Both the position numbers and the translations under genes were made by a program. The notes beneath the pieces were generated by a model, which saw only the letters and a program-made list of their open reading frames with translations, was not told the DNA's origin and made no database searches. Below, in pieces: positions 14,328 to 58,306 of a stretch of 64,000 nt of DNA (position 1 is the stretch's first letter; each line of letters starts with the position of its first letter). The stretch is from Candidatus Woesearchaeota archaeon (GTDB lineage: Archaea; Nanobdellota; Nanobdellia; Woesearchaeales; 0-14-0-80-44-23), in the NCBI GenBank assembly GCA_038874135.1, contig JAVZCZ010000001.1, positions 32,001 through 96,000 of the forward strand, in the 5' to 3' direction.

Positions 14328-14450
14328 TCCCCTCCCCCGGACTTGAACCAGGAACCTTCCGGTGACGGCTGTCCCGATTTCATTCATGCTCTCTCGGAGT
14401 TGTCTTCGGGAATCTACAGCCGGACGCTCTAACCATTGAGCTAGGAGGGG
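14328..14450 (-). tRNA. tRNA-Tyr(GUA) with a ~50-nt anticodon-loop intron (14364-14413)
   Basis: C1:G72 acceptor CCCCUCC/GGAGGGG-A; UCCGG-CUGUAG^A-CCGGA; T-loop UUCAAGU; removing the intron gives a 73-nt tRNA. Confidence 0.92.
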
Positions 14451-55972: not shown

Positions 55973-57055
55973 CTATTTTCCAACTACAATCTTCTTAGCT
56001 TCTATAATTGCTTGCTTGTGCTTCTCCTGATGCTCCTTAAGCATCTTGTTTAAGAATTCCATGCAGTTCTTCTTGCACTCCCCACAGAGAAGCCTGCCGC
56101 TTCTGCACTCTGAATATGTCTCTTCTAAGAATTTGTCTTCAGGATGGTGAAACTTAAAGATTTCATAGACCTTGCAAACTTCAGGATTGCCACCTTTTTT
56201 TCTTTGCTCCTCAACAGATTCTCTGCCACCTGTGAATGCCTTGGATATCTTCTTCTTTACTTCGTCAGGAGTGTCTTTTAAGAATATTGCAGTTTCAGGG
56301 TCTGAGGAGCTCATTTTGGAGTTTTCTTTAAGCCCTGAAAGGTGTTGAAAATAAAAGAAGGATGGAATCTCAAAATTGTAGTCCAGACGCTTTGCCACAT
56401 CTCTTGTCAGCCGAGCGTGAGGATCCTGGTCTATACCTATACCTGTTACCGAAGGGGCCTTCCCAAAGTATTCTGGAAGCTGCACGTGTAGTATGTCTGC
56501 TATCTGCAGGAAAACAGAAGCGATCTTTCCCAAGTCTGTATGCCCGTATATTGCTTCAAACATATTGTTGGTTATCTTTTTTGAAATCTCATATGAAAGC
56601 TGATAATACTCTTTCGGCATGTTTGACTGGGCGTAAATCTCTTCAGCAGGAATTCCGAGAGCGATTGCATCTGCAGCGTTTCTTATTCCTATCTCCTTAG
56701 CAATCTTCATAGAAGGCACTTTTGGGTCTGGTCTACTTACATATCCGTCAATATCTGCTATACAAAATCTGCTCTTGGCTCCTAATTTTCTAAATTCCAG
56801 ATAGAAGTCTATGTCTGTTTTGTGTCCAAGATGTAAATCCCCCGAGGATGCTATTCCTGTTAGTTGTAAGAATTTTTTTCTCTGTTTTATTGCTTCGGCT
56901 ATCTTCTGAAAGTCACGATGTGCTATTATTATCTTTCTTTTGAACAGATAGTGCTGGCTGATTGAGTAGTCGTTAAATTTTGATAATCCGAATTCTTCAA
57001 ACACATGTTCATAGTTTCTTATTGCGTTTGAGTCCCATGCGTTTATCTGAGTCAT
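55973..57055 (-). CDS. trpS: Tryptophanyl-tRNA synthetase (archaeal type)
   Basis: SSGDLHLGH, QIADIL, GIDQDPH, KMSSS, AFTGG and LLCGECK motifs. Confidence 0.96.
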   Translation of the reverse strand: MTQINAWDSNAIRNYEHVFEEFGLSKFNDYSISQHYLFKRKIIIAHRDFQKIAEAIKQRKKFLQLTGIASSGDLHLGHKTDIDFYLEFRKLGAKSRFCIADIDGYVSRPDPKVPSMKIAKEIGIRNAADAIALGIPAEEIYAQSNMPKEYYQLSYEISKKITNNMFEAIYGHTDLGKIASVFLQIADILHVQLPEYFGKAPSVTGIGIDQDPHARLTRDVAKRLDYNFEIPSFFYFQHLSGLKENSKMSSSDPETAIFLKDTPDEVKKKISKAFTGGRESVEEQRKKGGNPEVCKVYEIFKFHHPEDKFLEETYSECRSGRLLCGECKKNCMEFLNKMLKEHQEKHKQAIIEAKKIVVGK

Positions 57056-57120
57056 GAATATTGAAAATGGCAAGATTGTTTATAAATTTATCTTACTTTG
57101 TTAATTGTTATAGAAAAATA

Positions 57121-57347
57121 GGTGCTGGCGTTCTGGACTCGGTGAAAGAGTTCCTTTGCATGCACCTATCGAACTTAACCGTTGGTGCTGCATCAAGGTT
57201 ATCTCTTTCGCACGTGGAATATCGCTTACCGCGGTGTAGATCGCATACGGCGAGTCAAGGTCCAGTCGCCGTATTAATCGCCGAACACCGGGCAGAGGCT
57301 ACTCCCGCCGCATCCTTTTGCAGGACACCCGAAGTTTCCACGCCAGC
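57121..57347 (-). ncRNA. Unassigned ~224-nt structured non-coding RNA
   Basis: GC-rich island in an AT-rich spacer; terminal helix GCUGGCGU/ACGCCAGC and four internal hairpins; G-U pairs favour the minus strand; TATA box 23 nt before the 5' G and a U-tract after the 3' end. Confidence 0.72.
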
Positions 57348-57370
57348 GAAATTATTTAAATACTCTCATC

Positions 57371-57385
57371 TATATAAACTTTTCT
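57371..57385 (-). promoter_or_regulatory. BRE/TATA promoter of the ncRNA
   Basis: Minus strand reads GAAAAG-TTTATATA. Confidence 0.6.
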
Positions 57386-57460
57386 TTTTTTTGTTGTCAT
57401 TGAACAGTAACTACAAAATAGAAAGGTTTATATATTAAATCCTCTTTTTTAGATGTAGAG

Positions 57461-58306
57461 ATGATGAATATGAGCGAATACGAGGCTAAGCTTGAAATTG
57501 CTAAGCAAATTTTAGAATCCCTTTGTAATAAAGAATTGTCACATTCAGAACTGGAAGATATGGTGTACGACTTCTTTAGAGTCAGAAAGAGCAGAGAAGA
57601 AAAAAGCGAATTCCTAAACAATTATGACTCCTATAAGCTTATCCCTTATTCTAAATATGGTTTTGCGCGCAACATTGATAAGAAAAAATGCCTATCCAGA
57701 GAAGACAATTATTGGTTAAGATTTTTGTTCAACCACAAATCAGATTTTCACTACAAAATCCCCAAGCAGGGTTCTGATATTGAATTGTATTACAAAGCAT
57801 ACTTTACTTTAAAAGCAGAAAACCCTGAGGAATTCAAGAAAAATTATGAAAGACTTGGAATGGCTCTTCCTGAAATAATTGCCTTCCTATACGCCCTTGG
57901 AATTGTGAATAAGGATGAAATCCAGGCAAAAGTTTCTAACAATCCATACAAGATGTATACAACCAGAGACAACCTTGTTGTGCACTGCCGCAAGCCCGAA
58001 ACAGTTAAACAGGCAATTGCAGGTATAAATCACATCCTTGAAAAATATGGCACAACAATTGAGATTCACCACGGCTTTGACTTTTATAATAATGGTTCTA
58101 AATTTGAGGGAAGCCACACCCAACTGATATCTAGAATAATCTCAAGAAGGCTCTTAATGAATATAGATGATTACACTTTAATATCACCTGAAAATCTTGC
58201 CTCTTTTATACTTTCACAAAACGATGAGCTATCCCGCATGAGCCCACTTAATTTATACGCTCAGCTTAAAATGACTCAAGGTGAAAATTTTGAAGAGATA
58301 CAATAA
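57461..58306 (+). CDS. Hypothetical protein, HopA1-like
   Basis: KAYFTL..QAKV..P...RDNLVVH..EGSHTQLISRII resembles the HopA1 pattern (by-eye match only). Confidence 0.55.
   Translation: MMNMSEYEAKLEIAKQILESLCNKELSHSELEDMVYDFFRVRKSREEKSEFLNNYDSYKLIPYSKYGFARNIDKKKCLSREDNYWLRFLFNHKSDFHYKIPKQGSDIELYYKAYFTLKAENPEEFKKNYERLGMALPEIIAFLYALGIVNKDEIQAKVSNNPYKMYTTRDNLVVHCRKPETVKQAIAGINHILEKYGTTIEIHHGFDFYNNGSKFEGSHTQLISRIISRRLLMNIDDYTLISPENLASFILSQNDELSRMSPLNLYAQLKMTQGENFEEIQ

Follow-up and report, generated by a model that had tools for sequence, protein, structure and literature searches.

A conserved structured RNA of Woesearchaeota and related archaea, probably excised at a bulge-helix-bulge motif as a 201-nt ring

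What is encoded just upstream of trpS in this Candidatus Woesearchaeota archaeon, and why does it hold strands that could pair in mutually exclusive ways? The question concerns a stretch of 64,000 nucleotides (nt) of contig JAVZCZ010000001.1 (assembly GCA_038874135.1), hereafter the window; its genome, G000, is assembled in 1 contig of 910 kb and is 99% complete. Coordinates are positions in the window unless another genome or locus is named. Positions 57121-57350 form a GC-rich island, with 49-61% G+C in 100-nt windows against 20-45% in the surroundings, between trpS (55973-57055, minus strand), which encodes tryptophanyl-tRNA synthetase (TrpRS), and an orphan open reading frame (ORF) of 281 amino acids (aa) (57461-58306, plus strand). 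A first-pass annotation, made from the sequence alone, had noticed two long-range pairings competing with a terminal helix, and suggested a pseudoknot or a switch that might sense tRNA-Trp on behalf of trpS. Our analysis leads elsewhere. The island is a stand-alone gene for a structured RNA, and this RNA is likely to be cut out of its precursor at a motif of the bulge-helix-bulge (BHB) type by the tRNA-splicing enzymes and closed into a 201-nt ring locked by a kissing loop.

The gene occupies positions 57124-57347 of the minus strand and specifies an RNA of about 224 nt. The minimum free energy (MFE) is -96.4 kcal/mol (z -5.3) on the minus strand and -88 kcal/mol (z -3.7) on the plus strand; the RNA was assigned to the minus strand because its conserved helices contain many G-U pairs. 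No family of Rfam 15, group I introns and known ribozymes included, covers it at the gathering threshold in a scan of the whole window, and nothing matches at E<=10 on either strand of 56950-57550, the T-box model RF00230 included. Two natural tandem arrays, which would reveal a permuted match, gave nothing in Rfam either. RNase P RNA and signal recognition particle (SRP) RNA were rejected as identities, given the ordinary copies of both elsewhere in G000, and readings as an H/ACA, C/D, kink-turn (K-turn) or tRNA-mimic RNA, weighed from the letters alone, were unsupported. A search of full-text literature, with subscription journals and supplements outside its reach, found no description of this RNA.

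Homologs were collected in several ways. With BLASTN, the RNA turned up in 3 of 41 relatives, G000 counted among them, and covariance models were built from 3 (R1) and 7 (R2) sequences. A covariance-model scan of a sample of the order recovered it in 5 of 151 genomes, and with the same model a phylum-wide sample of 151 high-quality genomes yielded 13 carriers: 10 of these 13 belong to the same order (7 of the 16 genomes of one family) and 3 to other orders of the class. Re-sampling the same order for relatives of G113, a genome carrying the RNA, yielded no additional copies. A search pattern made of the two pseudoknot strands, run on 185,579 species genomes, returned 44 loci. R2 confirmed 42, and the other two (one without an R2 hit, one at 16 bits) were discarded as chance matches. 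The pattern-found copies are labelled Woesearchaeota, Pacearchaeota or Nanoarchaeia, along with some evidently automatic labels. A second pattern, combining the 5' motif with hairpin P2 and leaving the pseudoknot columns free, matched at least 120 metagenome stretches, and all 80 loci examined were confirmed. Altogether, at least 133 distinct copies were assembled. The RNA is an undescribed family, present in genomes of Woese-, Pace- and Nanoarchaeia and in metagenomes. Covariation was assessed on 79 distinct metagenome sequences chosen without pseudoknot bias, and the BHB geometry on 112 parsed copies.

The precursor comprises a terminal helix P1, a hairpin P2, a long arm P3, a second arm P4 and a conserved 3' tail, UUCACCGAGUCCAGA. 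Its parts, from 5' to 3', are:

57340-57347, minus strand: 5' strand of P1, GCUGGCGU, the outer BHB helix (h), pairing with 57124-57131; a flank that would be discarded
57336-57339, minus strand: central BHB helix (H), its 5' strand being GGAA in the window and GGAC in most homologs and pairing with GUCC at 57135-57138; a flank that would be discarded
57333-57335, minus strand: bulge 1, ACU, with the predicted cut at 57334/57333 and U57333 as first base of the ring
57329-57332, minus strand: UCGG, 5' strand of the inner BHB helix (h'), which would form the stem of the junction hairpin in the ring
57310-57328, minus strand: hairpin P2 with a G(C/A)AAA loop, as seen in the folds
57212-57308, minus strand: long arm P3 with conserved internal loops; its base contains UUCCACG (57213-57219)
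57260-57265, minus strand: CUGGAC, within the P3 apical loop and forming the 5' strand of the pseudoknot (kissing helix), covarying with 57133-57138
57144-57209, minus strand: arm P4, made of GAAAGAG...CUCUUUC, CCUU:AAGG and an apical hairpin with a conserved AGGUUAAG loop
57139-57142, minus strand: CCGA, 3' strand of h', pairing with UCGG at 57329-57332
57133-57138, minus strand: GUCCAG, whose GUCC pairs with the 5' GGAA/GGAC (H) in the precursor and which as a hexamer pairs with CUGGAC in the product
57132-57134, minus strand: bulge 2, AGA, with the predicted cut at 57133/57132 and G57133 as last base of the ring
57124-57131, minus strand: 3' strand of P1, ACGCCAGC; a flank that would be discarded

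This fold is strongly conserved. Over the 79 sequences, 86.8% of the cells of the consensus are paired, compared with 73.7% after shuffling and 33-40% when the partners are slid. Changes on both sides are found in 59 of the 73 pairs, and 12 compensatory pairs are already apparent among three sequences. Double compensatory changes affect all 7 modelled pairs of P1, 30 of the 35 pairs of P3 (helices 3-8) and 18 of the 20 pairs of P4 (helices 10-15), and P2 has one covarying pair, which is C-G instead of U-A in 17 of the 79 sequences. P4 was also recovered independently in the MFE folds of 6 of 7 homologs, the exception being the 3'-truncated copy of the genome G001. The R1 consensus drew the 3' domain as two hairpins; it was replaced, since the independent MFE folds and the covariation favour a single P4 arm. 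The apical loop of P3 has 11-12 nt; its 5' half, CUGGAC, is conserved and its 3' half is variable.

Some copies depart from this common architecture. Locus L008 of G113 (within 1501-1744) carries an 18-nt direct duplication, CGAAACCUACACUUGUUA twice, in the 3' strand of P3, and larger insertions elsewhere lengthen the ring to 239 nt in L073, 243 nt in L126 and 288 nt in L113. Two loci (L047 1876-2086 and L090 723-933) have a degenerate second copy, scoring 40 bits, about 330 nt upstream of an intact one; in these, CUGGAC has become UUGAAA and the GUCCAG tail is lost, so that they are probably pseudogenes.

The four motifs involved in the long-range pairings lie on the minus strand: CGUGGAA (57342-57336), CUGGAC (57265-57260), UUCCACG (57219-57213) and GUCCAG (57138-57133). 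Shuffled versions of the 224-nt RNA contain on average 5.7 pairs of complementary 6-mers and 1.3 pairs of complementary 7-mers. A lone complement of this length is therefore at chance level, and only comparative data can decide. For CUGGAC and GUCCAG, which the first-pass annotation had placed in a loop and near the 3' end, respectively, they are clear: CUGGAC sits in the apical loop of P3, GUCCAG in the unpaired 3' tail, and the two covary, with 99.1% of the cells paired and compensatory double changes at 5 of the 6 pairs. Pair 1 changes from C-G to A-U in 5 sequences, which amount to 3 independent events on a tree built without these columns. Pairs 3 and 4 change from G-C to A-U in L084 (CUAGAC:GUCUAG) and L079 (CUGAAC:GUUCAG), respectively. 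Copies found by the model alone add pair 5 in L189 (CUGGGC:GCCCAG) and, in L183 (AAGGGC:GCCCUA), compensation of pairs 2 and 5 with a mismatch at pair 1. There are at least 5 independent compensatory events overall; against the pairing stand one A.A mismatch in L078 and one G.U in L124.

The other proposed pairing, between CGUGGAA and UUCCACG, fared differently. It does not covary, the two closest relatives reading CGCGGAA/UUUCAAG and CACGGAA/UCUCAAG. Far from being single-stranded as had been supposed, UUCCACG belongs to the covarying helix at the base of P3, where 6 of its 7 bases have a partner; CGUGGAA lies partly in P1 and partly in the central BHB helix. To judge from the aligned homologs, this complementarity is due to chance and is not conserved. 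The competition with the terminal helix, on the other hand, proved real in its inner part, GGA:UCC, which overlaps the kissing strand. What survives of the pseudoknot or switch is thus a genuine, covarying pairing and two mutually exclusive structures, whereas a reversible riboswitch responding to tRNA is less likely. On our reading, the competition with the terminal helix is that between a processing structure and a mature one, and the supposed switch is most plausibly a step of maturation, namely excision at the BHB motif.

Two 3-nt bulges on opposite strands with a 4-bp helix between them define this motif, as it is described in PMC5829648. The 5' strand of the family runs in the order P1-GGAC-3 nt-UCGG and the 3' strand in the order CCGA-GUCC-AGA-P1; in the window they read P1(8 bp)-GGAA-[ACU]-UCGG ... 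CCGA-GUCC-[AGA]-P1. Next to P1, the 5' strand has 0 unpaired nucleotides and the 3' strand has 3, which is canonical apart from the mismatch in H. Bulge 1 has 3 nt in all 112 parsed copies, with a variable sequence. In the register of a 3-nt bulge, H forms 4 of 4 pairs in 103 copies and 3 of 4 in the other 9, compared with 1-2 pairs in the register of a 2- or 4-nt bulge. H also shows compensatory variants, AGAC:GUCU in L124 and GGGU:GCCC in L189. In the latter the change is triple, from U to C in the tail and from A to G in the two partners of the tail, namely the 5' strand and the loop of P3; L124 is compensated in the 5' strand and L084 in the loop. In the inner helix h', 108 of 115 parsed copies carry UCGG:CCGA, and one compensatory variant, UCAG:CUGA, is found in L186. 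Both enzymes expected of this pathway are encoded in G000: the splicing endonuclease EndA (PF01974, 99 bits; gene at C1:573129) and the RNA ligase RtcB (PF01139, 573 bits).

ARAGORN models introns in eight tRNAs of G000, of which one (2049 nt) is surely false: it is a tRNA-Arg at G000:C1:665588-667721 whose intron runs into the RNase P RNA locus (667488-667786). A tRNA-Tyr with an intron lies in the window (14328-14450, minus strand), with an Rfam tRNA match of 123 nt, and ARAGORN finds it only with the intron search. Its splice register is ambiguous, as CGGCUGU can pair with ACAGCCG, and it was dropped as a BHB reference. The tRNA-Trp at G000:C1:869767-869884 has a 43-nt intron containing GAUGAAG and CUGA, presumably reminiscent of the C/D boxes of the sRNA in tRNA-Trp introns of other archaea. 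The endA gene of Haloferax volcanii is directly upstream of trpS1, with a 4-nt overlap, in the account of PMC7714728, an odd parallel to the BHB-processed RNA beside trpS here, but the endA gene of G000 is about 480 kb away.

Is the RNA actually cut at this motif? The cut sites, AC/U and AG/A, were written down from the motif before any RNA data were examined. BHB cleavage falls after the second base of the bulge, a rule that is compared here with the observed junction only. The predicted ring runs from U57333 to G57133, and its ends would meet in a junction hairpin, CCGA[GUCCAGU]UCGG, whose loop kisses the loop of P3. Eleven microbial-mat metatranscriptome runs contain part of the stretch, and four were aligned to it. 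Three of them hold a circularly permuted contig of 229-231 nt in which 57333 is joined to 57133, a step back of 201 with no intervening letters. The fourth holds a 204-nt contig that ends at 57333 and has a loose end continuing with the sequence from 57133. Both ends of the observed junction are exactly the predicted cut positions, and the product is:

57133-57333, minus strand: mature circular RNA of 201 nt, from the contig joints in three runs and the loose end in a fourth

The contigs cover 57133-57333 and nothing else, with none on P1; the missing cover on P1, on the flanks and on the trpS leader is uninformative about read-through. A length of 231 nt is 201 + 30, which would be the k=31 unitig expected of a 201-nt circle. 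The contigs show 7-10 differences from the window and therefore come from a close relative; one pair of differences (57289 with 57233) looks compensatory. Given the cut positions observed, the 5' GGAC (GGAA here) is lost on excision. When the circle is folded with the kissing bases blocked, the junction hairpin, P2, P3 and P4 are all retained. Ring lengths in the 112 copies span 196-288 nt, and most are 199-205 nt. Rolling-circle coding was rejected: ring lengths are multiples of 3 in 39 of the 112 copies, around one third as by chance. In 105 of the 112 copies the longest stop-free run in the ring frames is under about 60 aa (bins below 80 aa).

The following course of events would connect these observations. 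The precursor would fold as a BHB, with P1, the central 4-bp helix, a 3-nt bulge on each strand and the inner UCGG:CCGA helix. EndA would cut after the second base of each bulge, and RtcB would join the ends into the 201-nt circle, 57333 to 57133 on the minus strand; that these two enzymes do the cutting and the joining is suggested by their presence in the genome. Excision would remove the 5' GGAA/GGAC, and the freed GUCCAG would enter a 7-nt loop, GUCCAGU, closed by UCGG:CCGA. This loop could then form with CUGGAC at the tip of P3 a 6-bp loop-loop (kissing) helix, which we expect to arise only after excision. The outcome would be a four-way junction of the junction hairpin, P2, P3 and P4, in a compact and locked fold.

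The surroundings of the gene bear on whether the RNA acts on its neighbours. The features outside it are:

57371-57383, minus strand: promoter of the RNA gene, an A-rich stretch resembling a B recognition element (BRE) and a TATA box TTTATATA (57378-57371), read from the sequence
57114-57118, minus strand: run of five U, 5 nt past P1, read from the sequence
57079-57086, minus strand: TATA box of trpS, TTTATAAA, about 24 nt ahead of the ATG at 57055
55973-57055, minus strand: trpS, TrpRS of 360 aa, ATG at 57055 (Pfam PF00579, E 3e-39)
57461-58306, plus strand: ORF of 281 aa without a Pfam family in a Pfam scan

The TATA box TTTATATA lies 23 nt ahead of the first base of P1, and an identical AAGTTTATATA stands at equal distance in G001 and G003. 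A TATA-like motif is found in 86 of 108 homolog loci, with a peak 35-40 nt ahead of the central BHB helix. Another candidate, TATTTAAATA (57353-57362), was rejected as promoter: it is too near P1, and the conserved TTTATATA fits instead. The U5 run is likely the terminator of the RNA gene in G000. Most homologs have no U run ahead of the small ORF described below, a run of at least five T being found in 9 of 97 spacers. Units may also abut in tandem with no space for a second promoter, as in L129 (42-269 and 273-501) and L102 (144-367 and 1-141).

The RNA lies 68 nt ahead of trpS in the same orientation in G000, and is divergent from trpS in G001 and G003. The start of trpS was set by alignment with the 360-aa orthologs of these two genomes, and the TATA box that the first-pass annotation had credited to the gene is indeed present on the minus strand; at about 24 nt from the ATG, it implies a leaderless or near-leaderless mRNA. 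Linkage to trpS does not extend to the homologs. TrpRS is found in none of the 80 flanking ORFs of at least 70 aa at 42 other loci, which include one cysteinyl-tRNA synthetase and are otherwise diverse. Adjacency to trpS is confined to the window's own family; L029 has a trpS-like ORF about 1.5 kb away. Nor is the UGG of the loop constant: it becomes UAG, UGA or GGG in some homologs, together with its partner. trpS is an incidental neighbour and not part of the element.

An all-against-all BLAST of 700 ORFs revealed no recurrent neighbour family except the 281-aa orphan, which is restricted to family f1. Homologs of this ORF (27-32% identity) stand beside a cassette of the RNA and the small ORF in G003 (L011 2197-3051) and G001 (contig C82); none was found in G113, G042 and G075. 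The cut-off of at least 70 aa in the neighbour census hid a further companion, later spotted by eye. Downstream of the RNA lies a mini-ORF for a Lys/Arg-rich protein of 35-90 aa with a consensus core GR..S.KSK.SKVKKLIKLAK. A profile of this mini-protein matches 103 of the 119 copies that have at least 120 nt downstream, always on the strand of the RNA, and gives 0 matches in control frames and strands. The spacer between RNA and mini-ORF has a median of 17 nt and measures 0-90 nt in most loci. Such short spacers, with few T runs, leave no room for a promoter of the mini-ORF, and the RNA is therefore a BHB intron in a 5' untranslated region (UTR) at these loci. Pfam and NCBIfam hold no family for the mini-protein; its relatives are all unnamed or "hypothetical" and, where a source organism is given, always from Woese- or Nanoarchaeota. 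We think it may bind the ring, of which it is the obvious candidate partner. G003 has one RNA copy with a mini-ORF and another without, next to trpS. The most divergent RNA copies (L010 1816-1920, L038 and L048) are followed by a different Lys-rich mini-ORF, missed by the A9 profile, whose start region reads Cys-Pro-(I/V)-Phe-Lys-Lys-Gly-Lys; it may be an alternative partner gene.

Several observations weigh against excision of the RNA as a ring. On the RNA side there are assembled contigs in place of raw reads, and they come from a close relative and not from this exact genome; the four coded metatranscriptome studies may be a single campaign. The joint could formally stem from DNA repeated in tandem at 201-nt intervals, but the genomic tandems actually seen have a period of 226-231 nt, P1 included. 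In this window, H has 3 pairs and an A.G mismatch (GGAA:GUCC), and across the family h' has one compensatory variant only, against four variants with a mismatch or wobble. A contiguous P1 of at least 5 bp directly beside H is missing in 38 of the 112 copies. On the 3' side, the 74 copies with a contiguous P1 show a clean 3-nt bulge in 10 cases, a 1x3 internal loop in 22 and a 2x4 internal loop in 17, the latter two being relaxed forms of the BHB. L183 (genome G219, from another order of the class) has no recognisable H or 5' GGAC, and the truncated L108 is probably in the same situation. The lineage of L183, with loop AAGGGC and tail GCCCUA, may be processed differently or else stay linear. 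Finally, a profile and motif search of G000 found no gene for the mini-protein (best E 0.115, motif 0), and the protein is therefore not essential to the RNA there.

Could the same data be explained without excision, or without a function of the ring? One might suppose a linear and stable non-coding RNA with a long terminal helix, and put the joint down to faulty assembly or to tandem copies in the relative's genome; the reliance on contigs and the existence of tandem genomic copies would suit this. Yet the joint falls on both of the BHB cut sites stated in advance, four runs agree and none of them reaches the flanks, and a 201-nt period without P1 is at odds with genomic tandems of 226-231 nt with P1, which makes the linear RNA very improbable. 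The idea that a T-box-like leader senses tRNA-Trp via the UGG of the loop and controls trpS, put forward in the first-pass annotation, can draw on the neighbouring trpS of G000, G001 and G003, on the trpS-like ORF near L029, and on the UCCA that the junction loop GUCCAGU has in common with the anticodon loop of tRNA-Trp (ARAGORN model, this genome). But UCCA is all that the junction hairpin shares with that anticodon loop, the stem being different; RF00230 has no match, and the RNA is divergent from trpS in two of the three genomes. TrpRS is absent from the flanking ORFs of the other loci, and trpS has a TATA box of its own. The UGG itself is held in the covarying kissing helix and varies with its partner, in an RNA that is excised as a ring. 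The annotation had let its proposal stand or fall with linkage to trpS in homologs, and the homologs are unlinked, which refutes it on its own terms; we give it almost no credence. A selfish or relic BHB intron-like element whose ring has no cellular function seems improbable too, if a little less so than the linear RNA. It would fit the patchy distribution (5 of 151 genomes in the order sample, 13 of 151 in the phylum sample), the tandem or second copies, the degenerate copies (L047, L090), the copies without ORF, among them that of the window, and the local inversion that distinguishes close relatives. However, BHB recognition requires the ends only, and what is conserved across several orders is an interior of about 200 nt with invariant loops and nearly every helix compensated. 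Moreover, a search of 2.9 million viral contigs with two patterns gave 0 matches, and the loci have no mobile-element gene as a recurrent neighbour.

The strongest of the alternatives, though still an unlikely one, is a reversible splice switch. GUCC(AG) would pick either the 5' GGAC, leading to excision, or the P3 loop, in which case a long structured 5' UTR is retained; the balance would be set by some factor, the mini-protein for instance, and the downstream ORF or, here, read-through into trpS would thus be autoregulated. That the two pairings are mutually exclusive and both under selection (L189, L124, L084) is in its favour, as are the distance of 0-90 nt, free of any terminator, that separates the RNA from the mini-ORF behind it at most loci, and the co-oriented position of the RNA 68 nt before trpS in G000. 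But with one pairing for processing and the other for the product, selection would be expected to act on both just as well. The ring turns up as a separate species in the assemblies, the conservation of its interior goes far beyond what a splicing-regulatory intron would require, and G000 has a U5 run past P1 and a separate TATA box for trpS. We hence prefer excision by the tRNA-splicing enzymes to a ring locked by its kissing loop. Our best guess for its role is that of a stable ribonucleoprotein (RNP) or a structural RNA acting in trans, not that of a cis regulator of trpS. Going further is speculative: the ring and the mini-protein might form a novel RNP, or the ring might be a ribozyme, with the choice made by GUCCAG serving as a protein-controlled switch of BHB splicing by which the cassette regulates itself. 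We hold this to be possible but improbable; if true, it would be the first riboswitch-like control of splicing by the archaeal endonuclease.

The family matters for other reasons as well. It offers a concrete example of a tertiary contact that, on this reading, can form only once splicing removes a competing strand. The ring is conserved in archaea with minimal genomes, which keep little that is dispensable, and it is coupled to an extremely basic orphan mini-protein. For annotation, it means that a GC-rich island between the genes of a DPANN genome can be a BHB intron of a 5' UTR and not the leader of the next gene.

How does this RNA compare with known systems? A T-box (RF00230) is likewise a structured RNA of about 200 nt beside an aminoacyl-tRNA synthetase gene with a codon-like triplet in a loop. 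The RNA described here is archaeal, does not match the model and is not a leader (it is divergent in two of three relatives); its triplet is paired intramolecularly and variable, and linkage to an aminoacyl-tRNA synthetase does not go beyond one family. Much closer are the products of the splicing endonuclease. BHB cleavage and ligation are known from tRNA introns, rRNA precursors, a permuted SRP RNA and very few mRNAs, in the accounts of PMC12558985, PMC4731332 and PMC7714728. Circular tRNA introns and pre-16S/23S rRNA, as presented in PMC12558985, share with our RNA the BHB, EndA, ligation and the circle, and the enzymes are encoded here. They are described there as by-products or intermediates, whereas here the ring is the conserved part and the flanks are variable. 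The permuted circular SRP RNA of Thermoproteus tenax (Plagens et al. 2015, PMC4731332) is presented as belonging to a known universal family; the RNA of the window has no Rfam family, and G000 has an ordinary SRP RNA elsewhere. The nearest relative in kind is the 46-nt BHB intron in the 5' UTR of H. volcanii HVO_1309 (Schwarz et al. 2020, PMC7714728). PMC7714728 calls such cases outside tRNA and rRNA rare and, in the passage concerned, cites only the cbf5 mRNA besides. As described there, the HVO_1309 intron is also an endonuclease substrate that is neither tRNA nor rRNA, lies in the 5' UTR of a protein gene, is excised and was detected in circular form. It has 46 nt, and its description in PMC7714728 reports no conserved internal fold. 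In our family, by contrast, about 200 nt are excised, with four covarying helices and a kissing contact, across several orders and sometimes with no host ORF. Hence, what is new is the cargo: a conserved four-helix ring of about 200 nt that belongs to no known family and whose contact bases are shared with the processing helix.

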